A stretch of DNA of 64,000 nt, from assembly GCA_041662665.1 (NCBI GenBank), contig JBAZSC010000003.1, forward strand, positions 4,603 to 68,602. Reading direction: 5' to 3'. The notes under the pieces were generated by a model. That model saw only the letters and a program-made list of their open reading frames with translations. It did not search any database and was not told the origin of the DNA. Within the stretch, counting starts at the first letter, position 1; each line of letters opens with the position of its first letter. The position numbers and the translations under genes were made by a program. Source of the stretch: Patescibacteria group bacterium (GTDB lineage: Bacteria; Patescibacteriota; JABMPQ01; JAQVVF01). Below, in pieces: positions 6,681 through 62,186 of this stretch.

Positions 6681-6715
6681 TCCTCCTTCGTCTTTCTAAG
6701 ACTTCGGAGGATAAG
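6681..6715. repeat. GC-rich hairpin repeat, copy b (tcctccttcg...acttcggaggataag)
   Basis: Same TTCG / CTTCGG-flanked inverted repeat architecture, about 30 nt upstream of tuf. Confidence 0.6.
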
Positions 6716-6741
6716 TAATTAAATAAATTAAAATTAAAAAA

Positions 6742-7992: not shown

Positions 7993-8340
7993 TTGATGAC
8001 AAAGACTAAGAATCAAGAAAAGAAAGAAGAGACATCTTCTCCAAGAATAAGAATCAAAATTAAGGCGTTTGATCATAAGATTATTGATCAATCAGCAGAG
8101 CAAATAATTGAAACTGCAAAAAGATCTGGTGCAGAGGTTATTGGCCCGATCCCACTTCCTACTGAAAAGCATAGGGATACTGTTTTGAAATCCACTTTTG
8201 TTCACAAAGATGCTCGTGAGCAATTTGAGATTAGGATCCACAAGAGATTGATTGATATTGTGAAGCCAACACCGAAGACGATTGAAGCTTTGTCGAACCT
8301 TAATTTACCAGCAGGAGTTGATGTAGAGATAAAGATGTAA
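7993..8340 (+). CDS. rpsJ: 30S ribosomal protein S10, with a short N-terminal extension
   Basis: [17 protein letters not shown]...[12 protein letters not shown]...[12 protein letters not shown] matches S10. Confidence 0.93.
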
Positions 8341-8651
8341 CCTTACTCGAATACTTTTTCGAATGATATGCTAATGTTTTTTCGAATGTTAGTGAATGTG
8401 TTTTTGAATAAGATTGAATAAATTTCCGAACCGAATGTTTGTGAACAGTCTTGTGAAGTTTTAAACATTTTTTGTTAACTATTTTTTAGATATAAAGTAG
8501 TATTTAGCAAATAAATAGGCGAGCGAATCGCTTTGGGTTTGTTAACCTAATTTTGTTGTAGTACACTAATGCTACACTAATAACGCTAATTAGACACTAA
8601 TTACTAATGGACACTAATTGTTGTTAATAATGGTTATTTAGATATTATTAT

Positions 8652-16654: not shown

Positions 16655-16710
16655 TGCCTCACTCGAATTAATTTTCGAATGAATGCGAATTAGTTTTCAA
16701 ATAGCGTGTA
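16655..16710. repeat. TCGAAT-rich repeat element (cactcgaattaattttcgaatgaatgcgaat)
   Basis: Shares the cactcgaattaattttcgaat core with copies at 44181 (inside recJ) and 45296. A looser copy lies at 8341-8447. Confidence 0.6.
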
Positions 16711-22645: not shown

Positions 22646-22649
22646 TTTT

Positions 22650-22717
22650 TTGTGGATAATATTTTATTCTAGACATGGTATACTTAGGTTATCTAAAGAT
22701 AGGATAATAAAACAAAA
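22650..22717 (+). promoter_or_regulatory. Conserved upstream region shared with the paralogous surface-protein gene at 45442
   Basis: ttttgtggataatattttattctagacatggtatacttaggttatctaaa is about 90% identical to 45372-45422; contains a TATACT -10-like hexamer. Confidence 0.55.
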
Positions 22718-25708
22718 ATGTTTTCGAAACGAGCAGGAAAAAATCAAGATCGAATTCTTGAAAAAGTAGGTTTTTTTAGTATTTCAAAATGCAAGATTCT
22801 TTTGAGTCTTTTTTTTGTTTTGGGAGTTTGTTTGTTTATGACGGTAAGGGTAAATGCCGCTTCGACTACATATTATGTTGATGCAACAGGTGGATTAGAT
22901 ACAAATAATGGGACTTCAGTTAGTACACCATGGAAGACAATAACTAAAGTAAATACTTCAATGGATTCTGCCACAATAAAAGCTGGTGATTTTGTTTATT
23001 TTAAACGAGGCGAAACTTTTACAGGATATTTAGATGTTGATGTTACTGGGACTGCTGGAAATATTTTGACTTTTGGCGCTTATGGAGATGGAAATAAGCC
23101 AATTATTAATGCAACTGGTAATAATCGTGCTATTGATGCAAGAACCAATATGTCTTATATAACTTACCAAGATTTAACTGTACAGAATGGAACCACCGAT
23201 CAATTTTTTATCTATGATAGTGCTACAAATATTACTATCAATAATGTAACTATTTCTGGCGGAGCTACAGGTATAAATATTATTACTGGTACTTTTGCTG
23301 ATATCTCTATTACTTCTACTGAAATATCGAATTATACCGGAACAGGAATAGCATTATATAGTGTAACTGGCGGCGGAACAAATATTACCATTGATGGAGT
23401 AACTGAAAATTCAGGTACTGGAACAAGAGGAATCTACATTAGCGCAGGAACATGGAATGGCATTGACATCCTAAATTCAGTATTCAGCAACCATAGTGCA
23501 CAAGGCATACAAACCGCATCATCAGTTGTAAATGATCTGACGATAACTGATGTTACTGCTTCAAGTAATAACGGATATGGTGTGTACTTGGGAGGGAGTG
23601 GTTCAAATTATGATATACATGGTTTGACTGCCAACTCCAATGGCTCTACTGCAGACTATGACGGATTATATCTAAATACTTCATCCAGTTCTTTAAGTAA
23701 TATTACTATTGAAGAAAGCGAATTTAACAGCAATGATGGAAATGGATTAGCATTCGCCAGTACCGGAAGCACTAGCTCCGTTTTATCTACAAACGCTTCA
23801 AGCAATGATGGTGATGGATTTAATATTCATAATGCTTGGACTGATTTAACATTTAATAATTGTATTGCAAATTCTAATGGCCTAGTCGGCCAGTCAGGCG
23901 CAGGCGATGGTTTTTCTTTTCACGAAACAAGTACTGGTACTATTAGAAATAGTATTGCTCAAGATAATATGAAATCATCAGTTGCAAATGTAGGAAGTGC
24001 TCAGGTTGTAATGTATAATAATCTTTTTTCTCATACAACTAATGGTACTCTTGCTCTTGTTTATTTGTCAGAAACAGGAACATATTCGCTATATAATAAT
24101 ACTATTTATAGTGCAGGGCATATAGGGTCTGGTCTGAACGTTGTTGGACCGACTCTAGATGTAAAAAATAACATAATTTATGGTTTCGATATTGGGTTTC
24201 AGAAAACTTCTGGTACTATTACTGAGGATTATAACGATGTATATGGCGCAACTACAGCCAATTTCAGTGGTCTTACTCCAGGCACTCATTCTCTTCAGCT
24301 TGATCCAAAATTAAATAATCCGCCAACTGATTTTTCTCTTCAGTCAGATTCTCCTGCAATTGATTCTGCCTACGATACAAGTATCACCACAGATTATGCC
24401 GGCAAGCAAAGATACGATGATCCAGACGTAGCAAACACCGGAGCAGGAGCAGTACCATATTATGATATGGGAGCTTATGAATATGTTCTTCCACCAGATC
24501 CAATATTTACATCATCATCTCATCCATCGCAATCATCTTGGTATTCAAATACAACAGTCAATATGTCATTGTCATCTAATGGATCTTCAACTACTAATTA
24601 CTATTATCTTGTCAATCAAAATGCAACACCAACTAAAGCAGAAGTCTTAGCTGGTACATTTGATGCTGACGGTATTTTTACAGTAACAATTTCATCTGAT
24701 GGTCAATGGTATATTCATACCATAGCTGTTAATTTAGATAATGATCCGTCAACAAACTACAGCAGCTATTTAGTCCAAATTGACACAGTACCTCCATCAA
24801 TTCCAGGTACTCCTTCAACATCTTCGTTAACAAACAACAACAAGCCAGAATGGACATGGACAGCATCAACAGATGCAACTTCAGGACTAGGTGATCCAGC
24901 TTACAATGTACAATGGTGTGATAATTCAAGCTTTATTGGTTGTGATTTAAATATCTCAACTTCAACAACAAATTCTTTTACTCATTCAATTGCTTTGGCT
25001 GATGGCACTTGGTATTTCAGAGTTCAAGCTATTGATAAAGCTGGAAATACTTCTGATTGGTCAGCTTCAGGTACTGATACAATTTTGACAGTTATTCCTT
25101 TTAACGAAAAAATTAATCTTAAAGATGCAGTTTTAAATCAAACCTATCAAAGCCAACAAAACAATGTAGATCTTCTTTTTTATCTTCTGCCAAAACAGAA
25201 AACAATCAAAGATTTATACATCAAATTAATTAGAAACAAGAAAAAACATCTAAATGGTTTCACAAAGAAAAACAGCTATCCAGGATATCTCAAGCTATTA
25301 TCAAACATCGGCACAGTCAAAAAAGCCTATCAGAAAAATGTTAACAAACATATTAATTTCAGAGTTTCAGTAAGATATTCAAAAACAAAATTAAACAAGA
25401 CGAATATTAAAGAAAAGAATCTAAGACTATTTATTAAAGATCGAGATGGAATATGGCGAGGGCCATACCGAATTTATCAAAACAAAACAACTCATACTCT
25501 AAAATTTAAGATTAGAAACTATTTAGTTAGACAGCCGAAAAACCCAATTCCAAATCCTTTAGATGTTAAGACTAAAAACAGACCATTTGCTCCAACATTT
25601 TACTTTAGAACATTAAAAAAGATTAAATTCGTAATTGCTGAGAAGAATGCCTTATCTAATTTAACTAATTTGGAAACATCGGATAGCCAAGATTTCTTTT
25701 TTGAATAA
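22718..25708 (+). CDS. Large secreted surface protein: leader, right-handed parallel beta-helix region, Ig/Fn3-like region, conserved basic C-terminal domain (~200 aa)
   Basis: 996 aa with a hydrophobic leader FFSISKCKILLSLFFVLGVCLF. Repeated N..T/G-rich beta-helix rungs (pectate-lyase-like). C-terminal 200 aa about 95% identical to the C-terminus of the 45442 gene. Confidence 0.8.
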   Translation: MFSKRAGKNQDRILEKVGFFSISKCKILLSLFFVLGVCLFMTVRVNAASTTYYVDATGGLDTNNGTSVSTPWKTITKVNTSMDSATIKAGDFVYFKRGETFTGYLDVDVTGTAGNILTFGAYGDGNKPIINATGNNRAIDARTNMSYITYQDLTVQNGTTDQFFIYDSATNITINNVTISGGATGINIITGTFADISITSTEISNYTGTGIALYSVTGGGTNITIDGVTENSGTGTRGIYISAGTWNGIDILNSVFSNHSAQGIQTASSVVNDLTITDVTASSNNGYGVYLGGSGSNYDIHGLTANSNGSTADYDGLYLNTSSSSLSNITIEESEFNSNDGNGLAFASTGSTSSVLSTNASSNDGDGFNIHNAWTDLTFNNCIANSNGLVGQSGAGDGFSFHETSTGTIRNSIAQDNMKSSVANVGSAQVVMYNNLFSHTTNGTLALVYLSETGTYSLYNNTIYSAGHIGSGLNVVGPTLDVKNNIIYGFDIGFQKTSGTITEDYNDVYGATTANFSGLTPGTHSLQLDPKLNNPPTDFSLQSDSPAIDSAYDTSITTDYAGKQRYDDPDVANTGAGAVPYYDMGAYEYVLPPDPIFTSSSHPSQSSWYSNTTVNMSLSSNGSSTTNYYYLVNQNATPTKAEVLAGTFDADGIFTVTISSDGQWYIHTIAVNLDNDPSTNYSSYLVQIDTVPPSIPGTPSTSSLTNNNKPEWTWTASTDATSGLGDPAYNVQWCDNSSFIGCDLNISTSTTNSFTHSIALADGTWYFRVQAIDKAGNTSDWSASGTDTILTVIPFNEKINLKDAVLNQTYQSQQNNVDLLFYLLPKQKTIKDLYIKLIRNKKKHLNGFTKKNSYPGYLKLLSNIGTVKKAYQKNVNKHINFRVSVRYSKTKLNKTNIKEKNLRLFIKDRDGIWRGPYRIYQNKTTHTLKFKIRNYLVRQPKNPIPNPLDVKTKNRPFAPTFYFRTLKKIKFVIAEKNALSNLTNLETSDSQDFFFE

Positions 25709-27107: not shown

Positions 27108-27225
27108 GTTTTGTGTGTTTAGATGTTTGTTAAGTTTAATTAGATTTTATTGTTTTAATAAGTTTTAACGCGGAAAAACGCAGAACTTAACGCGGAAAAT
27201 GCGGAATCGTAATAAATAATAATAT

Positions 27226-33282: not shown

Positions 33283-33392
33283 TGCCAAAAATTATTTTTC
33301 TTCAGTCTGCGGAACTCGCCTCGTTTCACTCGGCTCAGACAATCCTCGACTTCAGAAAAAAAATTTTTGGCAAAATAAATTTTTAATTTATT
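33283..33392. repeat. Palindromic element immediately upstream of the hydrogenase large-subunit gene
   Basis: Arms tttttgccaaaaatt / aatttttggcaaaa flank a GC-richer core cttcagtctgcggaactcgcctcgtttcactcggctcagacaatcctcgacttcag. Confidence 0.5.
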
Positions 33393-38300: not shown

Positions 38301-38305
38301 TTAAA

Positions 38306-38428
38306 AATTACAAATCTCAAATTCCAAACAAAATCCAAATTACAAATTACAAAGTCGACGGTTTGTTTTTTGTGTTTTGTATATTGTAATTTGTTTGGGA
38401 TTTGGAATTTGTGATTTGGGATTTAATG
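38306..38428. repeat. Palindromic intergenic element, family B, between eno and gpmI
   Basis: caaatctcaaattccaaacaaaatccaaattacaaattacaaa ... ttgtaatttgtttgggatttggaatttgtgatttggg. Confidence 0.65.
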
Positions 38429-40017: not shown

Positions 40018-40169
40018 ATATTCGGAAATTCGGATATTAAGAAATTAGAAATTGGAAATTATTATTTAATTTAGTTCAGATATAAATTTCGTGGTAGCCT
40101 AAAATTAAAAAGTATAAATTACTTTCGAAAATAGATTCGAAAACATTAGAAAATTAATTTGAGTATTAT

Positions 40170-40736
40170 ATGAAAATAAAAATAGAAGTAAGTGCAAGGC
40201 ATATTCATTTGAGCCAAGAACATTTGGATCAACTTTTTGGAAAGGATTATAAATTAACAAAAAAACAAGGATTATCGCAAGAAGGTGAATTTGCTTGTGA
40301 AGAAACTTTGAAAGTTGTTGGACCAAAATTAGAAATTGATCATGTTAGAATAATCGGGCCAGTTAGACCAAGAACACAAATCGAAGTTTCAAAAACTGAT
40401 GGTTTTATGTTAGGCAATATTCCTCCATTAAGAATTTCTGGAGATGTAGTTGGATCAGCGCCAGTGAAATTAGTTGGGCCTAAGGGTTTTGTTGATTTAT
40501 TAGAAGGAATGATTATTGCAATGAGACATATTCATATATCGGAAGAACAGGCAGAAGGTTTAAAATTGAAGGATGGTCAAAGAGTTTCTATTTCTTGTTT
40601 TGGTGATAGAGGTCTGTTATTTAATAATGTTGTTGTTAGAGTTAATCCGAAATTTGATTTTTATTTACAGCTTGATACTGATGAGGCAAATGCTGCTGGT
40701 GTGGAAAATGGAGATGTCGGGGAATTGATTATTTAA
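40170..40736 (+). CDS. pduL: PduL-type phosphate acetyl/propionyltransferase (phosphotransacylase)
   Basis: Two tandem PduL repeats, each with a RHIH motif (SARHIHLS and AMRHIHIS). Confidence 0.8.
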   Translation: MKIKIEVSARHIHLSQEHLDQLFGKDYKLTKKQGLSQEGEFACEETLKVVGPKLEIDHVRIIGPVRPRTQIEVSKTDGFMLGNIPPLRISGDVVGSAPVKLVGPKGFVDLLEGMIIAMRHIHISEEQAEGLKLKDGQRVSISCFGDRGLLFNNVVVRVNPKFDFYLQLDTDEANAAGVENGDVGELII

Positions 40737-42323: not shown

Positions 42324-43400
42324 ATGCAAAAATATATACTAGTTATAAATTCAGGTTCAACTTCTTTAAAATACAAATTATTTTTAGAGACTGATTTAAA
42401 GATGATTAGATCTGGATATATTGAACACATTGGTGAAAGTGAAATTAAAGATCATGAGCAAGCTTTTGGAATAGTTTTGGAAGAAATCAAAGATTATAAA
42501 AATGATATTGTAAAAATTGGACATCGAGTTGTGCATGGAGGAACTAAGTTTGTAGAGCCAACAAAGATTGATGAAAACGTTTTGAAAGAATTAGAAGAAG
42601 TAAGTAAATTAGCGCCATTACATAATCCAGCAAATTTAATGGGAATTAAGGCATCTATGAAATTATTGCCAAATGTTTTAAATGTTGCTGTTTTCGATAC
42701 TGCTTTTCATCAAAGTATTCCAGAAAAAGCGTGGAGATATGCGATTGATGATAAATATTTTAAACAATATGGAGTGAGGCGATATGGATTTCATGGGATA
42801 TCACATGAATATGTTTGTGGACAAGTTAAAAGTCAAAAGTCTAAAGTCAAAAGTAACAATTCAAAATTAAAAATAATCTCCTGCCATCTTGGTGGTGGAT
42901 GTTCGGTTTGTGCTATTTCTGATGGCAAATCTGTTGATACTTCGATGGGATTTACGCCACTTGAGGGATTGGTGATGATGAGCAGATGTGGTGATATTGA
43001 TCCAGCAATAGTGACATATTTGCAGAAAAAAGAAAATTTAAGCGTTGATCAAATTGAAGAAATTTTGAATTTTAAATCTGGAATTTTTGCATTATGTGGT
43101 GAGACAAATTGGTTGAAAGTTTTGGAACGTGTTAAAGTTAATGATAGATTAGCAAAAATGGCTTTTGATATTTTTGTTTATAGAATAAAAAAATATATTG
43201 GTAGTTATTACGCAATTTTAGGCGGACTTGATGTTTTGGTTTTTACTGGATCAATTGGATCTGGAGATGCTTTAACTCGAGAGGCTGTTTGTGACGGTTT
43301 GCCATTTTTGGAAAATGTTGAAGTGACGGCGATTAAGACGGATGAGGAAATGATGATCTCTAGGAAAATTCTAAGCACTAAATTCGTTAAAAGCTTCTAA
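42324..43400 (+). CDS. ackA: Acetate kinase
   Basis: ILVINSGSTSLKYKLF N-terminus, HLGGG, and ASKHD-family fold. Small Lys/Ser-rich insertion (SQKSKVKSNNSKLK). Confidence 0.88.
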   Translation: MQKYILVINSGSTSLKYKLFLETDLKMIRSGYIEHIGESEIKDHEQAFGIVLEEIKDYKNDIVKIGHRVVHGGTKFVEPTKIDENVLKELEEVSKLAPLHNPANLMGIKASMKLLPNVLNVAVFDTAFHQSIPEKAWRYAIDDKYFKQYGVRRYGFHGISHEYVCGQVKSQKSKVKSNNSKLKIISCHLGGGCSVCAISDGKSVDTSMGFTPLEGLVMMSRCGDIDPAIVTYLQKKENLSVDQIEEILNFKSGIFALCGETNWLKVLERVKVNDRLAKMAFDIFVYRIKKYIGSYYAILGGLDVLVFTGSIGSGDALTREAVCDGLPFLENVEVTAIKTDEEMMISRKILSTKFVKSF

Positions 43401-43450
43401 GGTCGCTTTTAACTTCTAAGCAAATTCAAAGAACAAAAATATAAATATAC

Positions 43451-43550
43451 GAAGAGGCTCAGCCTTTTATTTAAATTGTTGGTTTGTGTTTTTAATAAAG
43501 TTGATTTTAAATGTAATTGCTTAGTTTTTTTAATAAAAGGCTGAGCCTCT
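43451..43550. repeat. Long-range inverted repeat directly upstream of recJ
   Basis: aagaggctcagccttttatttaaa ... ttaataaaaggctgagcctctt (about 19-bp stem, about 55-nt loop). Confidence 0.5.
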
Positions 43551-43557
43551 TAAGATT

Positions 43558-45293
43558 ATGCAAAGACTTTGGCAGGTAAAACAAAAAATAAGTGAAGATT
43601 TTATTAATAAATTTCCAGAATTTGATTCTGTGATTTTGCAATTGTTATTTAATAGAGGAATTGATAATCAGAAAAAGATTGATGAATTTTTTAATCCAGA
43701 TTATTCAAAAAATTTATTTGATCCATTTTTATTGAAAGATATGGATCGAGCGGTTGAAAGAATTTTTAAGGCATTAAAGAATAAAGAAAGAGTTGGAATT
43801 TTTGGTGACTATGATGCTGATGGCGTAACATCATCTGTTTTATTAACAGAATTATTTAAAAAAATTGGTTTGGCTGGGCAAGTTTATATTCCTGATCGAG
43901 TCTCTGAAGGCTATGGAATGAATAAGAAAGCAATTGATTGGCTAGCAAAAAAAGATATTAAATTGATTGTCAGTTGTGATTGTGGTGTTTCAAACAAGGA
44001 AGAAATTGATTATGCAAAAGAAAAATATGGAATTGATTGCGTAATTACTGATCACCATCATGTTCCTATAGATTTTGATAAAAAATATATTGTTGTTGAC
44101 TCAAAAAGAAAGGGTGATAAATATCCATATAAAGAGTTGGCGGGTGTTGGCGTTGTTTTTAAGCTGGCTCAGGCATTGATCACTCGAATTAATTTTCGAA
44201 TAAAAGCGAATGAATTTTCGAATGTTAAACTTGAAAATGGTTGGGAAAAGAGTTTGCTTGATTTAGTGACGATTGGCACGATTGCGGATTGTTCGCCGAT
44301 TATTTCGGAGAATAGAACATTGGTGAAATATGGATTAAATATTATAAAAGAGACTGAAAGAATTGGTTTGCAAAGTTTGATGCAAGTAGCTTGCGTTGAT
44401 CCAAAATTAATTAATAGCGACAGAATCGGTTTTGCAATTGCGCCAAGAATTAATTCAGCTGGCAGAATGGATCATGCTTCGGCATCGTATAAACTTTTGA
44501 TTACAGAAGATTTGGAAAAAGCAGTTTGGTTGTCTAAAAAAATCGATAAGACAAATTCAAGCCGGCAATCTTTGACAAGTAAATTAGTTGATGAGGCAAA
44601 AAAGAAAATTGGCGATGTCAAAGATCAAAAAGTATTAATGGCATCTGGTGGAAATGGCCTTTGGGCGTTGTAGGTATTGTGGCTGGCAGGATTTGTGAAG
44701 AATATAATCGGCCAACTTTGATTTGTGGTAAGGGCTTGATTGAATCTGTTGGATCAGCTAGAAGTATTCCTGCTTTTGATATTATTGACGCTATTTCTTC
44801 TTGTAAAAATTTGTTATTAGAATATGGCGGACATAAACAAGCAGCTGGCTTTTCTTTGAAAAATGAAAATTTTGAAAAATTTCATAAAAAATTAGAAAAA
44901 ATTGCAACAGAAAAAATAGATGAAAAAGATTTACAGCCAGTAATTGAAATTGACAGCGAAGTTGATTTTAAAGATGTGAATTGGAATTTGTATGAAAGAT
45001 TATTAGATTTTGAACCTCATGGAATTGGAAATCGAAAGCCGGTTTTTTTGGCAAAAGATATTCAAGTTATTAATGCTTATCCTGTTGGCAAAACAAAAAA
45101 GCATTTAAAAATGAAAATTAAGTCTAATTCCGATAGTCGGATTTTTGATGTGATTGGTTTTAATCATGGACATAGAGTAGAGGAGTTAAATAAAAAAGGT
45201 AAAATGGATATTGTTTTTAATTTGGATTGTAATGAATGGAATGGAGAAAAGATTTTGCAGTTGAGACTTGTTGATTTTAGGATTTCACTCTAA
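43558..45293 (+). pseudogene. recJ: Single-stranded-DNA exonuclease RecJ, split into two ORFs (43558..44673 and 44661..45293) by a frameshift near 44650-44662
   Basis: N-terminal ORF carries DHH motifs (GDYDADGVTS, ITDHHH). C-terminal ORF carries DHHA1 (GGHKQAAGF). The canonical ...WxPGVVGIVAGRI junction appears as WKWPLGVVGIVAGRI in the shifted frame. Could be a real pseudogene, a sequencing error or a slippage site. Confidence 0.7.
44181..44230. repeat. TCGAAT-rich repeat inserted in-frame within recJ
   Basis: cactcgaattaattttcgaataaaagcgaatgaattttcgaatg encodes ITRINFRIKANEFSN. Its 22-nt core aattttcgaataaaagcgaat recurs at 45296 just after the recJ stop. Confidence 0.65.
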
Positions 45294-45295
45294 TA

Positions 45296-45360
45296 AATTT
45301 TCGAATAAAAGCGAATTCATTAAAAAATTTCTATTCAAAATTTTTTAATTCGAATGATGT
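45296..45360. repeat. TCGAAT-rich repeat, intergenic copy
   Basis: aattttcgaataaaagcgaattcattaaaaaatttc...aattcgaatg. Confidence 0.6.
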
Positions 45361-45371
45361 TCCGATAACTT

Positions 45372-45441
45372 TTTGTGGATAATATTTTATTCTAGATATG
45401 GTATACTTAGATTATCTAAAATTGGTATAATTAAAACAAAT
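45372..45441 (+). promoter_or_regulatory. Conserved upstream region shared with the surface-protein gene at 22718
   Basis: ttttgtggataatattttattctagatatggtatacttagattatctaaa, about 90% identical to 22650-22700. Confidence 0.55.
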
Positions 45442-47856
45442 ATGTATTTTTTTAATACAAAAATAAACAAAAAAGTACGAGGGGGGGGGCTTAATGGAAA
45501 GGTAAAATTTTTTAGTATTTCAAAATACAAGATTCTTTTGAGTCTTTTTTTTGTTTTGGGGGTTTGTTTTTGTTTTGGTAAAATAACGTTTGCTTATCCA
45601 CCCTATACACCAAATTCTGATTTAGTTGTTGTGGGTCCTTATGATACTGCACCAACAAGTGGAGTAAAAAATATAGGTGATGGAGTAGGCGATGGAGTTG
45701 CTAAACGTTATTGGTTAAACGGCGGTCAAAAATACAGAATTCGGCAGAATGGAACCATTAGTAAAGCTAAGGTCTGGGTACCAAACTCTAATGGAACATT
45801 TACTTTTTTTCAAATTCAAATATGGAGACCAAATGGAACAAATTTTGATTTAGTAGGAGAATCGGAAAATTTTTATTCTTCAATTACAAAAAATCAAGTT
45901 AATGAGATCACTTTATCTTCTCCTATCTCCAATGTTCAAGAAGGAGATTATTATGGAATTGTAATTTCGATGAATGGTGATACTGGGTCAATGTATGCAA
46001 GAAGTGGTTTGACCGGAGTCAATCTATACTATACTTCGACGACGCCTAGTGATACTAATTATAATTGGTTGGCAAATTCTAAACTATCAGGATATGCTAT
46101 TCCACTAGAATTATATATGCAAGCGCCACAGGGTGTTTTTATCGGTGATTCTATTGTGGCTGGTCATCCTGCTAATTATAGTTTCTTAGAAACTACAGCA
46201 ACAACAGATATTAGTTCTACTATTGAGAAACAATTTAGTAATCTTACAGGATATACTTATCAAAATATGGGTATTGGTTCACAGACAACTTCTAACATAT
46301 CTGCTCGTTTTACCAATGATGCATTAAATTTAAAACCTAGATTTATAGTAGTTGAAGGAGGAGTAAATGATTTAGCTGGAAGTGTAGATAAGTCTGTTTT
46401 TATTGCAAATTGGACGAGCATGTTGGATGCGGTACAAGCAGATGATGATATAACAACAATAATAATTTTGAAAATCTTACCTTGGACAGATGGAACAAAT
46501 ATTCAAATGCAAACTAGAGATGATTGGAACGCATCATTAGTTACTTTGTCATCAGGATATTCAAAGGCTATAGTTGTTGATGCGAGTACTTATGTGGGGC
46601 AGTTTCGTGCAGGTGGTGATGTTGGAAATCTTTGGGATATACAACTCGCTTATGATGAGTCGGGAGTACATTTTAATCAAGCAGGAAATTCTCAAATAGC
46701 ACAAGCAATTGCCGATGCATTAGATAGTGATGCTCCAGTTACAACTGCTCTTCCATTAGGGGGAATATATAACAGTTTTAAAACAGTAACTTTATCTTGT
46801 GATGATGGTAGCGGACAAGGATGTAATAAAACATATTACACAATTGACGGGACAGATCCAACTACAAGCTCACCTGAATATACTGTTCCTCTAGATATTT
46901 CTTCTAATACTACTTTAAAATTCTTTTCAGTTGATGTTGTTGATAACCAAGAATCAGTAAAAACAGAAGTTTATGTTATTGACACAGAATCACCAGTAAC
47001 AACTGCTACTCCAGCTGGTGGAACATACGATAGCGTTCAAGTAGTTACTTTGACAACAGATGAAGCAGCAACAACATATTACACATTAGATGGCACAGAT
47101 CCAACAATTTTATCGTTAGTCTATTCTTTGCCAATCACAATTTCTGAAACATCAGTTCTTAAATTTTTTTCAGTTGATAATGTTGGAAATTCCGAAAGTG
47201 TAAAAACTGAAGAATATATTATTAATACTGAAGCTCCATTTATTCCTTTCATTGAAAAACTTAATTTAGAAAACGTAATTCTAAATCAAACCTATCAAAG
47301 TCAACAAAACAATGCAGATCTTCTTTTCTATCTTCTTCCTAAACAAAAAGTAATCAAAGATCTATATATTAAATTAATCAGAAACAAGAAGAAACACCTT
47401 AATGGTTTTACAAAAAAGAATAGTTATCCAGGTTATTTAAAACTATTATCAAATATTGGTACAGTAAAAAAAGCTTATCAAAAAAATGTTAATAAGCATA
47501 TTAATTTTAGAGTCTCTGTTAGATATTCTAAAACAAAATTAAACAAGACTAACATCAAAGAAAAGAATCTAAGATTATTTATTAAAGATCGAGATGGTAT
47601 TTGGCGAGGACCATACAGAATTTATCAAAACAAAACAACTCATACTCTAAAATTTAAGATTAGAAATTATTTAGTTAGACAACCGAAAAATCCTGTTCCA
47701 AATCCACTTGATGTCAAAACAAAAAATAGACCATTTGCGCCATCATTTTACTTTAGAACTTTGAAAAAGATTAAATTCGTAATTGCAGAGAAAAATACAT
47801 TATCTAAATTAACAAATTCTGAAACATCGGATAGCCAAGATTTTGATTTTGAATAA
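45442..47856 (+). CDS. Large secreted surface protein: leader, SGNH/GDSL hydrolase domain, two CHB_HEX_C-like (chitobiase/beta-hexosaminidase C-terminal-like) repeats, conserved basic C-terminal domain
   Basis: Leader FFSISKYKILLSLFFVLGVC matches the 22718 gene. GDSL block VFIGDSIVAG, block III GGVNDL and block V DESGVHFNQAG. Tandem ~80-aa repeats (YYTIDGTDPTTSS... / YYTLDGTDPT...). C-terminal 200 aa about 95% identical to the 22718 protein. G9 tract at 45481-45489. Confidence 0.8.
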   Translation: MYFFNTKINKKVRGGGLNGKVKFFSISKYKILLSLFFVLGVCFCFGKITFAYPPYTPNSDLVVVGPYDTAPTSGVKNIGDGVGDGVAKRYWLNGGQKYRIRQNGTISKAKVWVPNSNGTFTFFQIQIWRPNGTNFDLVGESENFYSSITKNQVNEITLSSPISNVQEGDYYGIVISMNGDTGSMYARSGLTGVNLYYTSTTPSDTNYNWLANSKLSGYAIPLELYMQAPQGVFIGDSIVAGHPANYSFLETTATTDISSTIEKQFSNLTGYTYQNMGIGSQTTSNISARFTNDALNLKPRFIVVEGGVNDLAGSVDKSVFIANWTSMLDAVQADDDITTIIILKILPWTDGTNIQMQTRDDWNASLVTLSSGYSKAIVVDASTYVGQFRAGGDVGNLWDIQLAYDESGVHFNQAGNSQIAQAIADALDSDAPVTTALPLGGIYNSFKTVTLSCDDGSGQGCNKTYYTIDGTDPTTSSPEYTVPLDISSNTTLKFFSVDVVDNQESVKTEVYVIDTESPVTTATPAGGTYDSVQVVTLTTDEAATTYYTLDGTDPTILSLVYSLPITISETSVLKFFSVDNVGNSESVKTEEYIINTEAPFIPFIEKLNLENVILNQTYQSQQNNADLLFYLLPKQKVIKDLYIKLIRNKKKHLNGFTKKNSYPGYLKLLSNIGTVKKAYQKNVNKHINFRVSVRYSKTKLNKTNIKEKNLRLFIKDRDGIWRGPYRIYQNKTTHTLKFKIRNYLVRQPKNPVPNPLDVKTKNRPFAPSFYFRTLKKIKFVIAEKNTLSKLTNSETSDSQDFDFE
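45481..45489 (+). repeat. Homopolymeric G9 tract inside the 5' coding region (codes RGGG)
   Basis: gggggggggc in a roughly 30% GC genome; absent from the paralog at 22718. Confidence 0.9.
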
Positions 47857-49050: not shown

Positions 49051-49618
49051 GACTCAAGTAAGTTGAGTGATTGCTCTGTACATGGTTTGCAAAAATTATG
49101 TGCGGAGAGGAAAGTCCGGGCATCATTTGGAGGTTGGATGTGAGAAATGGGAAATGGGAAAAGAAAAATTCTCATTTTCTCATATCCCATATCCAACTTC
49201 CAATTTCGTGGTAGTTCCGAAATGGAACCAAGTATAAGAAATTGCTAACTGCTAATAGTTTATAGCTAATAGTTGATAGTTGTTTCGAAGCTAGGACCAG
49301 TGCCACAGAGACGTAAACTACCGGGGAACTAGTAACTAGGAAACTAGTAATTAGGGAACTGGAAAAGGTGAAAAGAGTGGTGTAAAAGACCACAGATTGT
49401 CATGGTGACATGGCAATGGGGTAAACTCTACCTGATGCAACCCAATATAAACTGGGGCATGAATTGTCAAGCAATTGACAATCCAGAGAGATAATCACTG
49501 AATCTCTAATTTGCACTAATTTAGCACAAATAGCACGAATAACTATTTGTGAAATTCGTGATAAATTTGTGCCTATTAGAGATTCTACAGAACCTGGCTT
49601 ATAGACTTACTTGAGTCA
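49051..49618 (+). ncRNA. rnpB: RNase P RNA (bacterial type A), unusually long at about 568 nt owing to AT-rich helix expansions
   Basis: P4 strands GAGGAAAGTCCGGGC (49087-49101) and ACAGAACCTGGCTTA (49588-49602). Conserved AAGGTGAAAAGAGTGGTGTAAAAGACCAC. 13-bp P1 pairing gactcaagtaagt / acttacttgagtc. Confidence 0.85.
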
Positions 49619-49625
49619 TTTTAAT

Positions 49626-49658
49626 CTGCCTACGTCTTGAGGGACTTCGGTAGACAAG
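49626..49658. repeat. GC-rich hairpin repeat, copy f, just 3' of rnpB
   Basis: tctgcctacgtcttgagggacttcggtagacaag. Confidence 0.55.
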
Positions 49659-49783
49659 AAGTTATAAACAACCCAACATGTTTTGTTGAGTTTTTTTTAT
49701 TTTTGGGTTAGAATAATGTTAGTAAACAGGAAACAGAAAACAGTATTTTCTATTTTCTATTTTTCATTAACTATTTTCTATAA

Positions 49784-56801: not shown

Positions 56802-59780
56802 ATGATAAACAAAAACAAATTTAGAATTATTGGTGATGTAGCGGATTTTAATAATGGTCCGGCAGTTTTAGATTTGCGTGAAATTGGAAAAGCAAGAAAA
56901 CTTGAAGAAAAGCAGAGATTAGAGAAAGATTTGATTAATCTAAGATCATCGCAGAAAAACGCAGAAGCGAACGTAGAAAACGCAGAAGCGAACGCAGAAA
57001 ATGCGGAAACTAATGCGGAAAATGAGGAAGCTAACTTACTTGTTGATCAGGTAGGTGCAGAAAAAGCAGTAGAACAAATACAAATACAAGAATTACAGAA
57101 ACCTAAAGTTCAAGAAAAAAATGATGAGCAAATTTTAGTTCAGCATGAAGATCAAGTGAAGCCCGTTGTTTTACCTCAAGCAGAAATTGTTGCTAAACCG
57201 TTAGTGATTAAGGATGAAAAACCAAAAGTAAAAAAAATGTCTTTTAGCAAGAATTGGTTGCAAAGACAAGCAGAAAAGAAAAAAATAAGAAATGCAAAAA
57301 TAGCTGAGATTAAAAGAATAAAATTAGAAAAACAACAGAAAGAACAGGAATTAAAGAAAGCAAGAATTTTAGAACAGCAAAATATAAAATTAAAAAAAGA
57401 ATTAGAAAAAAGAGAAGCAAAAAAATTATGGCTTTTAGCAAAACAGGAAGCTAAACGTAAAAAGTTAGAGGAGAAAAAGGCATTACAAGAAAAAATATTA
57501 TTACAAAAACAACAACTAAAATTAAAAAAAGAATCCGCCTTCGCTCTTGCTAGAGCTACGGCGGACAAAGAAAGAATTTTGGAAAAGCAAAGATTGGAAT
57601 TAGAATTGAAAGCAAGACAGGAAGAATTGAGACTTAGAAAAATAGCCGAAAAGCAAGAATTAGAATTAAGATTGCAATTAGAACAACAAGAAAAAGAAGA
57701 GAGAAAATTAATTGAACAGCAAAGAAAAAGTTTTCAAGAACAGCAAAAACCAAAAGTTGATTATTTATTATTATTTAAAAATAGATTTGGCAAGAGTTTT
57801 AGATTCTCATTAATCTTTTTTGTTCTGGTTTGCGCTATTTTAATGTCTGGAATTAAGGGTTTAGATTTTTTTAGTTCTCAAGCAAAAAATACAAAATCAA
57901 AAATATTAAGCGATGCAATGGTTGCTTATCAATATATGGGATCAGCAACTAATTCAGCGACAAGCAAGGATTTTGAAATGGCATCTTATAAATTTGGCGT
58001 GGCTGGAGATAGATTTTTGAATGCGCAAAAAGATTTGAATCAATATGGCGAAGTTTTGACTTCAGTTCTAAAAATTATGCCTGGCGCATCAGCTGTTAGA
58101 TCAGGCGATAATTTGCTGTCAGCTGGCGCTAATTTATCACAAGCTGGAGAATATTTATCATCAGCAGTAACTCCTTTTAATGATTTAGGCAGTTTTATTA
58201 GCTTGCCTAGTGATGAAAATAGCAATAACCAAAAAACTACTTTAACAGAATTATTATCTGAAGCAACGAATAATTTGAATTTAGCAATTGGAAAATTAGA
58301 TGCTGCTAACTCAGATTTAAAGAATGTAAAAGTTTCTGATTTGCCTTCTGATGTAGCGCCAAAAATTGCAACAATTAAAGATAATTTGCCAACGATTAGT
58401 TCTGATTTAAAAACTTTGACTTCTTATTCTGATAATTTTTTGCAAATGCTTGGACATAAGGGCGCAAAAAGATATTTAGTATTATTTGAAAACAATAGGG
58501 AATTAAGACCTACTGGCGGATTTATGGGAACATATGCTTTAGTTGATATTGATTCTGGTAAGATAAAAAATATTAAAATAGAAGGTCCATATAATTTGGA
58601 TGGAAATTTAATGGAAAAAATAATTGCTCCAGAGCCATTACGATTGATTCAAGTTAAATTATTTTTGAGAGATTCTAATTGGTTTTTAGATTTTCCAATG
58701 TCAGCAAAAAAAGTAATGTCAATGTATGAAAAATCAGGCGGGCCTACAGTTGATGGCGTTTTTACAGTTACAGGTAATGTGATGGAAGCTTTGTTAGGAG
58801 TAACAGGCGAAATTGATATGCCAGAATATGGAACAGCAGTCAATGCTGATAATTTTTTTGATAAAACGCAGTTTGAAGTGGAATATGATTATGACAAACA
58901 AGAAAATGAACCAAAGAAATTTTTGGCAGATCTTTTTCCAGTATTCCTTGACAGATTGTCAAATTTAAGCAAGGATAAATGGTTGGAAACTGCAAATGTG
59001 ATGTATAAGATGCTTGATCAGAAAGATATTATGATGTATTTTAATGATGAAAAACTAGAAAATTTTGTAAAAGAATTTAATTGGACTGGCGAGATAAAGA
59101 ATCCAAGCAAAGATTATTTATCAACTGTTATAACAAATATTGGCGGAGGAAAAACAGATGATGTTATTGACCAAAATATTTTTCATGAAGCAGAAATTCA
59201 AGATGATGGTTCAGTGATTGATACAATAACAGTAACAAGAATTCATAATGGCGATCCAAATGATATGTGGACTAGTGTTAAGAATATGGCTTATATGAGA
59301 TTTTATGTTCCACTAGGAAGCGAGATGATTGAAGCTCGAGGTTTTGATAAAGAATTTTGGGGAGTTCTTCGACCGTTAGAAGAAGGTTCTAACCCTGATC
59401 CTTTGATTTCAAATATTGAAAATAATACAAAAGTTAATAATGAAAATGGAATTAGAATTATGGAAGAAGGCGGTAAGACTGTTTTTGCAAATTGGATTGG
59501 TATCGAATGTGGTCAAGCAAAAACAATGGTGATAAAATATAGATTACCTTTTAAAGTGCAAAAGACTGGTCAAGATGCAGCGACTTCTTATGCAATGTTT
59601 TTTCAAAAACAACCAGGTACAAAAGCGTTTGAAACAACAAGTATTTTGAAATATCCAATAGATTATTATGTTAATTGGAAATATTCTTCTGATAATATGT
59701 TGACTGAAGTTTCTGATGGATTGCAATATAGGACAAATTTGAATAAAGATAAAGCATATGCAGTGGTATTTGTGAAATAG
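56802..59780 (+). CDS. Large envelope protein: charged coiled-coil N-terminal region with oligopeptide repeats, one TM helix, and a large extracytoplasmic domain that appears DUF4012-like
   Basis: E/K/Q-rich 300 aa with NAEAN repeats; TM FRFSLIFFVLVCAILMSGI; then LVLFENNRELRPTGGFMGTYALVDID, resembling the DUF4012 N.E.R.TGGF.G signature (recalled from memory, not searched). Confidence 0.55.
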   Translation: MINKNKFRIIGDVADFNNGPAVLDLREIGKARKLEEKQRLEKDLINLRSSQKNAEANVENAEANAENAETNAENEEANLLVDQVGAEKAVEQIQIQELQKPKVQEKNDEQILVQHEDQVKPVVLPQAEIVAKPLVIKDEKPKVKKMSFSKNWLQRQAEKKKIRNAKIAEIKRIKLEKQQKEQELKKARILEQQNIKLKKELEKREAKKLWLLAKQEAKRKKLEEKKALQEKILLQKQQLKLKKESAFALARATADKERILEKQRLELELKARQEELRLRKIAEKQELELRLQLEQQEKEERKLIEQQRKSFQEQQKPKVDYLLLFKNRFGKSFRFSLIFFVLVCAILMSGIKGLDFFSSQAKNTKSKILSDAMVAYQYMGSATNSATSKDFEMASYKFGVAGDRFLNAQKDLNQYGEVLTSVLKIMPGASAVRSGDNLLSAGANLSQAGEYLSSAVTPFNDLGSFISLPSDENSNNQKTTLTELLSEATNNLNLAIGKLDAANSDLKNVKVSDLPSDVAPKIATIKDNLPTISSDLKTLTSYSDNFLQMLGHKGAKRYLVLFENNRELRPTGGFMGTYALVDIDSGKIKNIKIEGPYNLDGNLMEKIIAPEPLRLIQVKLFLRDSNWFLDFPMSAKKVMSMYEKSGGPTVDGVFTVTGNVMEALLGVTGEIDMPEYGTAVNADNFFDKTQFEVEYDYDKQENEPKKFLADLFPVFLDRLSNLSKDKWLETANVMYKMLDQKDIMMYFNDEKLENFVKEFNWTGEIKNPSKDYLSTVITNIGGGKTDDVIDQNIFHEAEIQDDGSVIDTITVTRIHNGDPNDMWTSVKNMAYMRFYVPLGSEMIEARGFDKEFWGVLRPLEEGSNPDPLISNIENNTKVNNENGIRIMEEGGKTVFANWIGIECGQAKTMVIKYRLPFKVQKTGQDAATSYAMFFQKQPGTKAFETTSILKYPIDYYVNWKYSSDNMLTEVSDGLQYRTNLNKDKAYAVVFVK
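57534..57570. repeat. GC-rich hairpin repeat, copy d, in-frame within the DUF4012-like CDS
   Basis: tccgccttcgctcttgctagagctacggcggacaaag, encoding SAFALARATADKE. Confidence 0.6.
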
Positions 59781-62074: not shown

Positions 62075-62177
62075 TCCACCTTCGCTTCTGCGGAAGCTTC
62101 GGTGGACAAGTTCCGCCTTCGCTCTGAGGAGCTTCTGCCTTCGCTGAAGCTTCGGCAGACAAGTCGGCGGACAAAGG
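62075..62177. repeat. GC-rich hairpin repeat cluster, copy e: 2-3 tandem units immediately upstream of the 62187 gene
   Basis: tccaccttcgcttctgcggaagcttcggtggacaag, then ttccgccttcgctctgaggagcttctgccttcgctgaagcttcggcagacaag, then tcggcggacaaagg. Confidence 0.7.
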
Positions 62178-62186
62178 AAAACAAAA

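Follow-up and report, generated by a model that had tools for sequence, protein, structure and literature searches.

A TCGAAT-rich repeat inside and directly after recJ in a Patescibacteria genome, probably a dispersed minisatellite-like module

Here we report on a TCGAAT-rich repeat in a stretch of 64,000 nt (the window) from a Patescibacteria group bacterium (GenBank assembly GCA_041662665.1, contig JBAZSC010000003.1, positions 4,603 to 68,602 of the forward strand), one member of which lies in frame inside recJ, the gene of a single-stranded-DNA exonuclease, and another directly after the gene. The repeat is a real, non-random family. It is probably a dispersed minisatellite-like module, which would have spread by slippage and template switching and would be tolerated in a surface linker of the RecJ protein. 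The comparison covered the 64-kb window of the source genome and short stretches from relatives. An earlier note on this DNA had described an AT-rich TCGAAT family with the two members at recJ and with related copies after the ribosomal-protein genes rplF and rpsJ; the repeats at recJ were confirmed, and the two other copies proved real as well, as tandem arrays of the same 44-nt family.

Results

The string common to the two recJ copies, AATTTTCGAATAAAAGCGAAT, was recovered as a repeat, with a length of 21 nt instead of the 22 nt counted earlier. Exact matches lie at 44191-44211 and 45296-45316, and a third match, with two mismatches, after rplF (16670-16690). These three matches in the window compare with an expectation of 0.04 from 100 dinucleotide shuffles, none of which gave three. 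The recJ pair lengthens to 32 nt with two mismatches (44180-44211 and 45285-45316; 93.75%, E 3e-8). In a 44-nt register (repeat family D17) the copy after rplF is the reference (16659-16702, 100%), which 44180-44223 matches at 89% and 45285-45328 at 80%.

The module is about 44 nt long, AT-rich and composed of two units of about 22 nt, each with two C(G/T)AAT cores. In each of the seven modules that were compared, the cores occupy offsets 5, 17, 27 and 39, which corresponds to a spacing of 12/10/12 and a mean of 11 nt. The consensus of 14 aligned copies from the window and its relatives reads TTACTCGAAT-nAAT-TTTCGAAT-AAAT-GCGAAT-nnnT-TTTCGAAT. Tandem Repeats Finder (TRF) called arrays of period 12 or 23 at 8347-8409, 16663-16702 and 44184-44224, with 3.5-3.8 copies of the 12-nt period and 2.7 copies of the 23-nt period (8348-8409). 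By these calls and by the core offsets the units stand head to tail, as in a minisatellite, and they are imperfect, with unit-to-unit matches of 66-67%. The window has five loci with copies of the module, of which one is in recJ, and in four of the five copies the cores are on the sense strand; three copies (at 16659, 44180 and 45285) have a common 5' boundary, TCACTC(G/T)AAT. The density of CGAAT is about four-fold higher in spacers (2.8 per kb) than in coding DNA (0.72 per kb), and within the coding DNA of the window such cores cluster in recJ alone.

The copy inside recJ occupies 44180..44223 on the forward strand, with four CGAAT cores at 44185, 44197, 44207 and 44219 and the spacing 12/10/12. 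It is translated as (I)TRINFRIKANEFSN, the 21-nt string itself giving ITRINFRIKANEFSN. A protein search for RecJ homologues returned seven sequences of 82-92% identity (P0001-P0007) and two of 71-72% (P0008, P0009), all from Patescibacteria metagenome-assembled genomes and raw assemblies, and the DNA of eight relatives was compared. In the alignment the module falls between the invariant FKLAQA of the DHH domain and LLDLVTIGTIADC, in the sole hypervariable part of the N-terminal domain. The linker between these two motifs is 87, 96, 96, 108, 111, 111 and 123 nt long at seven recJ loci with conserved flanks, and the differences among relatives (3, 9, 12, 15, 24 and 27 nt) are all multiples of three. 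With the exception of L003 and L204, which keep only a TTTGAAT remnant, the linkers have between four and six cores of the C(G/T)AAT type, spaced 12/10/12 wherever there are four. Their reading frame is constant: cores 1-2 give Arg from CGA, and cores 3-4 give Ser/Ala-Asn from xCG AAT. The cores change by base substitution (CGAAT to CTAAT and the reverse) and by in-frame insertions and deletions; the linker of L008 contains an internal duplication of 27 nt, and L205, at 72% RecJ identity, still has ACACTAAT, GCTCGAAT and ACTCTAAT units there.

The earlier note had called the intragenic copy an in-frame insertion and had proposed an alignment with RecJ orthologs. Against solved RecJ structures the segment is indeed extra, with a gap of 18 residues to 8y30_A and of 14 to 5f54. 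A recent insertion it is not, since relatives with 72-92% RecJ identity share the same module, frame and linker; a variable linker is general among them. The alignment thus shows the CGAAT sequence as ancestral to the clade, and the intragenic copy has stood in the same frame since before the 72%-identical relatives split off. The N-terminal fragment was modelled with AlphaFold (mean predicted local distance difference test score, pLDDT, 87.8). In the model a helix (196-216) that contains FKLAQA continues through ITRINFRIK and gives way to a coil at residues 217-228; pLDDT is 77-79 there and 95-97 in the flanks. As modelled, the segment fits a tolerated surface linker.

The gene itself spans 43558..45293 on the forward strand and is divided between two open reading frames (ORFs), 43558..44673 and 44661..45293. 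Pfam places DHH in 43558..44670, and DHHA1 and RecJ_OB in 44661..45290, which is the domain order of RecJ, and the N-terminal piece matches the solved RecJ chains 8y30, 5f54 and 2zxo. The frame breaks where one T is missing between 44649 and 44650 (GGTTGG to GGTGG), at a site that is intact in all eight relatives (GGTTGG or GGCTGG). A public record (P0010) holds the identical RecJ fragment of 371 amino acids. The split gene is either a pseudogene or the product of a sequencing error, and the single-base loss has no relation to the repeats.

The copy after rplF lies at 16659..16702 on the forward strand, starts 4 nt past the stop of rplF (L6, 16109..16654) in the spacer to rplR (L18, 16736..17080; both genes confirmed by Pfam), and matches the recJ copy at 39 of 44 positions. 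In four relatives the same spacer always starts with TAGTGYCTCAC and always holds an array. There are four cores in the window and six in L089 and L090, a difference of exactly one 22-nt unit (four to six cores are reported for the position in L089); L091 has a GC-rich hairpin of 20 nt nested inside the module, and L092 has ACACTAAT units with a spacing of 11/9/11. Unit number thus varies at single loci, both here (4 and 6) and in the recJ linker (4-6), as it does in variable-number tandem repeats (VNTRs). The recJ module of the window is as similar to the rplF module of L089 (41/44) and of its own genome as it is to the recJ modules of L007, L006 and L001 (39, 35 and 30 of 44) or more so. Similarity between loci thus equals or exceeds similarity between genomes at recJ, which, with 44 nt per copy, is a mere suggestion that loci exchange sequence or that the sequence is under selection.

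An extended array fills part of the spacer between rpsJ (S10, 7993..8340) and rplC (L3, 8652..9263), two further genes confirmed by Pfam. It runs from 8344 to 8447 on the forward strand and has about nine CGAAT, CTAAT or TGAAT cores, with TRF periods of 12 and 23. A degenerate copy in reverse orientation (40121..40164; inverted pair I22, 77% complementary to 44182-44225) lies just upstream of a PTAC-family (PF06130) gene at 40170. It is absent from L001, L003 and L007, where 17-18 nt replace the spacer of 152 nt.

The copy after recJ is partial, holds the first three cores and overlaps the end of the gene (45285..45316, forward strand). Its TCA CTC TAA forms the last two recJ codons (Ser, Leu) and the stop (45291-45293), and the exact 21-nt string starts 3 nt past the stop. 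In the window TCACTCTAATAAATTTTCGAATAAAAGCGAAT directly follows the conserved GATTTTAGGATT, and the module therefore supplies Ser-Leu-stop; in relatives RecJ ends in ...DFKID, DFKIN or DFRIM followed by the stop, no module copy is found there, and the spacers 3' of recJ are unrelated and composed of other repeat families (ATTGTTAA in L001 and L005, GTTAGAT in L008). The copy agrees better with the intragenic one (30/32), with which it has the window-specific AAAAGCGAAT in common, than with the copy after rplF (28/32).

Beyond the partial copy lie 53 nt of unique AT-rich filler (45317..45369, forward strand) with a 12-bp A/T inverted repeat (45319-45330 and 45338-45349); the filler has no significant match elsewhere in the window, and its fold is no better than those of shuffled sequences (z = -0.16). 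It is followed by the promoter and 5' region of a gene for a surface protein with GDSL-lipase and CHB_HEX_C domains by Pfam (45370..45569, forward strand), which is duplicated from 22647-22833 (96% over 51 nt; 91% over 75 nt, D19). Gene content between recJ and rnhA varies among relatives, with no, one or two surface-protein genes. These comparisons show the downstream copy as a partial duplicate specific to this genome, located where recJ adjoins a variable island of surface-protein genes. Its template was probably the intragenic copy, 1.1 kb upstream, at the time when the junction formed; tandem duplication of 44180-45284 with subsequent deletion, an alternative origin, is indistinguishable here from direct template switching. 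The position at the junction is a clue to the origin of the downstream copy and carries no information on a role. The surface-protein gene after recJ also shares an internal block of 300 nt (47237-47536 and 25089-25388, 83%) with its partner gene, which encodes a beta-helix protein of 996 amino acids (22718..25708), and a perfect DnaA-box-like TGTGGATAA lies in the upstream block common to both genes.

Neither terminal inverted repeats (by inspection of the sequence) nor target-site duplications (by direct reading of the flanks) were found at 44180-44223, 16659-16702 and 45285-45316. Five copies of the module folded no better than shuffled sequences (z = 0.02 to -1.71), with only trivial TTCGAA self-complementarity. 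No terminator-like site was called between 45293 and 45440, where the only stem consists of 12 A/U pairs, and Rfam gave no match at the recJ region, its sole match in the window being RNase P RNA. An RNA-structure or terminator role of the module was rejected on these folds, terminator calls and Rfam results. No transposase, of the RAYT type (REP-associated tyrosine transposase; REP, repetitive extragenic palindromic sequence) or any other, was found among the recJ neighbours tested. Core numbers in the recJ linker (87-123 nt) are graded among relatives, down to the remnant in L003 and L204, and the spacer with the reverse copy is replaced as a whole.

A scan of metagenomes for four CGAAT cores at the spacing of the module gave 111 stretches, and a viral scan gave six matches; the metagenome scan did not return the source contig or its close relatives and is only a weak hint. 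Four (T)GCGAAT cores at 12/10/12 stand directly after a stop codon at L160 556-640, L163 829-880 and L184 9866-9910, in unrelated low-GC contigs, and a canonical GC-rich terminator lies just after the array in L160.

The earlier note had counted the TCGAAT repeat as a second family. Short-period repeats make up nearly every spacer in the window. They belong to more than ten families, among them AATTTCT, AGTTATAAA, GTTAGATNN, CAAATTC, ACGCTGATnnn, ACACTAAT, GATATTA and GTAACTA. They often form inverted pairs and thereby long hairpins. In spacers 4.8% of positions have a 6-mer that is repeated within 6-13 nt, compared with 1.0% in coding DNA. The eno-ipgm spacer (38301-38424) holds a hairpin in the window, L001, L003 and L007, and the ackA-recJ spacer (43401-43557) in the window, L001, L003, L006, L007 and L008; both hairpins measure about 90-150 nt in all relatives examined and are built from a different repeat family in each genome. 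Hairpins at a fixed position with unconserved sequence are a hint that the structure is selected or that the spacers have been replaced repeatedly. A metric of repeat density, compared with other Patescibacteria and controls, was highest in the window, L001 and L008, with L007 and L205 in the control range, and was too noisy to show clade specificity.

Repeats also occur within genes. The RNase P RNA of bacterial type A (49055-49617) has 563 nt against a model of 367 positions and contains short-period arrays of GAAATGG, TAATAGT and AACTAGT units by TRF; the roughly 200 additional nucleotides appear to be repeat-built hairpins. In RecJ, P0006 has a clean in-frame insert of 33 nt, TCCGTCTTCGCCTGCGGGCTATGACGGACAAAG, which forms a GC-rich hairpin and is absent from the otherwise near-identical P0004 (L204 4591-4674 and L003 11591-11641), and P0001 has a 27-nt array of three AGTAAAATT units in the same C-terminal loop (L005 1667-1744). 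Seven related AckA proteins have a repeat loop of 0 to about 40 residues between the invariant HEYV and IISCHLGGG. In ackA of the window (42324..43400) an in-frame array of 7-nt AAAGTCA-type units at 42818-42874 encodes VKSQKSKVKSNNSK, and AckA of L001 has an additional N-terminal insert of nine residues. With repeats in spacers, in RecJ and AckA and apparently in RNase P RNA, the TCGAAT segment of recJ is one instance of a general property of the lineage.

Several further features of the window were recorded. A family of GC-rich hairpins, CCACCTTCG...CTTCGG...GGACAAG, occurs at 1575-1650, 6700-6730, 33310-33370, 49640-49680 and 62080-62180 and stands out in a genome of 31% GC; related hairpins lie in spacers of L007 and L006. 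An intergenic ACGCGGAAAA/ACGCAGAA array (27169-27209) is 66-78% identical to an array with a period of 21 nt (56950-57032) within the ORF 56802..59780, a repeat family common to spacer and coding DNA. All gene-like ORFs of at least 100 amino acids lie on the forward strand across the 64 kb, and many start codons follow repeat units, with no recognisable Shine-Dalgarno sequence.

Discussion

We consider it probable that the repeat is a minisatellite-like module which slippage and template switching have dispersed and which a surface linker of RecJ tolerates. Arrays would grow and shrink by replication slippage, and modules would reach new sites by template switching, that is, by templated filler synthesis at breaks and rearrangement junctions, or by ectopic conversion, and not by transposition. 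The intragenic copy would persist as a tolerated extension of a helix and a loop, from which selection removes only out-of-frame variants, and a sequence-specific function of the module would not be required. Several points weigh against this account. Slippage explains the number of cores and not the arrival of a 44-nt module at a new locus, a step for which we infer the mechanism. The shared 5' boundary is what a discrete element would show. The similarity between loci (39-41/44), which equals or exceeds that between genomes at recJ (30-39/44), fits exchange between loci and also selection on the sequence, and the four-core CGAAT arrays with the same spacing just past stop codons in unrelated metagenome contigs could mean a function. 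The assignment of the intragenic copy as donor of the downstream one depends on two diagnostic positions, with 32-44 nt per copy.

The shared boundary, seen in three of the copies dispersed over five loci in 64 kb, would also suit a miniature non-autonomous mobile element, akin to a miniature inverted-repeat transposable element (MITE) or a Rickettsia palindromic element (RPE), with the two recJ copies as two insertions. So would a similarity between loci and between genomes that equals the similarity among recJ copies of different genomes, and the dispersed copies, one of them in frame within recJ, are a trait that the module has in common with MITEs and RPEs. Another repeat family of these genomes has a clean presence and absence (the 33-nt hairpin in P0006 and not in P0004), and a 20-nt hairpin is nested in the module of L091. 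We nevertheless hold a mobile element to be unlikely, as the module has no inverted termini, no target duplication and no fold better than shuffled sequence, changes in length by cores and not all-or-none, and has no discrete length. The position and frame of the recJ copy are constant across the clade, the downstream copy is truncated to 32 nt, no transposase was found among the recJ neighbours tested, and 44 nt is far below the approximately 150 bp of an RPE (PMC10969869). A functional cis-acting array is quite unlikely in our view. Such an array would consist of phased protein-binding sites or bent DNA and act after genes, in the formation or processing of transcript 3' ends or in nucleoid organisation, with the recJ copy accidental or exapted. 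Its mean spacing of 11 nt is about one helical turn, its position after rplF is kept in four relatives together with the lead-in TAGTGYCTCAC, and the sense orientation of four of the five window copies agrees with it. So do the 111 metagenome stretches, several of which stand directly after a stop and before a canonical terminator (L160, L163, L184), with 12 arrays following a co-directional gene and four antisense by a crude ORF classification. In the scan, however, the search pattern imposed the spacing, and the matches come from heterogeneous contigs (GC 0.18-0.71). At the same position the core drifts from CGAAT through CTAAT to ACACTAAT; other families have periods of 7, 8 and 9 nt, which cannot phase with the helix; same-position spacers in relatives use different families, and the reverse copy at 40121-40164 is absent there. 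No significant RNA structure and no terminator-like site were found for the module.

The earlier note had also suggested that the pair of repeats around the 3' part of recJ could mediate deletion or inversion. The two copies are direct repeats 1,105 nt apart (21 nt exact, 32 nt with two mismatches) that bound the 3' two-thirds of the gene, and recJ is already disrupted by a frameshift between them, which could speak for a recombination substrate that deletes or switches the gene. The direct orientation excludes inversion and leaves deletion at most, and the frameshift is an unrelated loss of a single base. Among nine related RecJ genes none has a repeat-bounded deletion or a downstream copy. 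An identity of 21 nt is a poor substrate for homologous recombination, and we regard such a switch as highly improbable. The explanation of the whole pattern by chance similarity of AT-rich DNA, or by an assembly artefact such as a false join via a repeated k-mer, can be considered effectively refuted. A metagenome-assembled source with 31% GC and much low-complexity sequence would invite it, but three matches were observed against a shuffle expectation of 0.04, and the downstream copy has two mismatches of its own among the 11 nt that precede the exact core, which a different sequence follows; with such distinct flanks, neither can be borrowed from the intragenic locus. The module is moreover present in recJ and after rplF in independent assemblies of other samples.

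Among known systems, RPEs are palindromic, about 150 bp long, and each encodes a conserved peptide (PMC10969869). The repeats described here resemble them as small dispersed repeats of a reduced genome, some intergenic and others in frame within conserved genes that are unrelated to each other (PMC10969869), with an added peptide compatible with the protein fold; in the window, repeats apparently also expand RNase P RNA. The TCGAAT module differs in its 44 nt, its lack of palindromy and of a significant fold, its variable tandem cores and its lack of a discrete 3' boundary. The tandem repeats of Borgs have perfect units, form locally and independently, and are divisible by three within ORFs (PMC9879509). 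Here, too, tandem repeats pervade spacers and ORFs, with almost all genes on one strand (PMC9879509), evolve fast, differ between close relatives, can start in gene ends, preserve reading frames and yield variable or disordered segments. Unlike Borg repeats, the module has imperfect units (66-67%) spaced 12/10/12, so that only the total length is in frame, recurs at several loci and in several genomes, and includes an intragenic array that is old and not recent.

The likeness to minisatellites or VNTRs lies in head-to-tail units whose number differs between relatives, with only in-frame changes in coding DNA. A classical VNTR is confined to a single locus, which leaves unexplained a 44-nt module about 90% identical at unlinked loci and the fact that more than ten families nearly saturate the spacers. 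REP sequences, bacterial interspersed mosaic elements (BIMEs) and enterobacterial repetitive intergenic consensus (ERIC) sequences are likewise short dispersed intergenic repeats after genes, and many other spacers of the window and of its relatives are long repeat-built hairpins; the TCGAAT module, in contrast, has no hairpin and also lies within coding sequence, and no RAYT was found among the recJ neighbours tested. The module thus lacks the defining features of both RPEs and Borg repeats and has those of a minisatellite. In a literature search no account of such arrays in the Candidate Phyla Radiation or Patescibacteria came up, which is not proof of their absence.

A more far-reaching possibility, which we regard as doubtful, is an active copy-and-paste process that writes repeat modules into weakly constrained DNA (spacers, expansion segments of RNase P RNA, surface loops of RecJ and AckA) and keeps unlinked copies similar. 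If true, it would be a distinct and undescribed mode of genome evolution in ultra-small bacteria, analogous to the RPEs of Rickettsia and the tandem repeats of Borgs and mechanistically unlike both, and it might be linked with a particular polymerase or repair deficiency, or with a role that the arrays have at the ends of genes.

The case of recJ is not a regulatory switch and gives no ground to expect programmed rearrangement. If the reading as a dispersed minisatellite-like module is right, conserved proteins in reduced genomes gain fast-evolving linkers of variable length from the repeat material of spacers, a cheap source of length variation in protein and RNA where spare DNA is scarce. 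Repeat loops and saturated spacers will be a source of error in alignment-based phylogenies, in gene calls and in strain typing of Patescibacteria, and the arrays could serve as sensitive strain markers.

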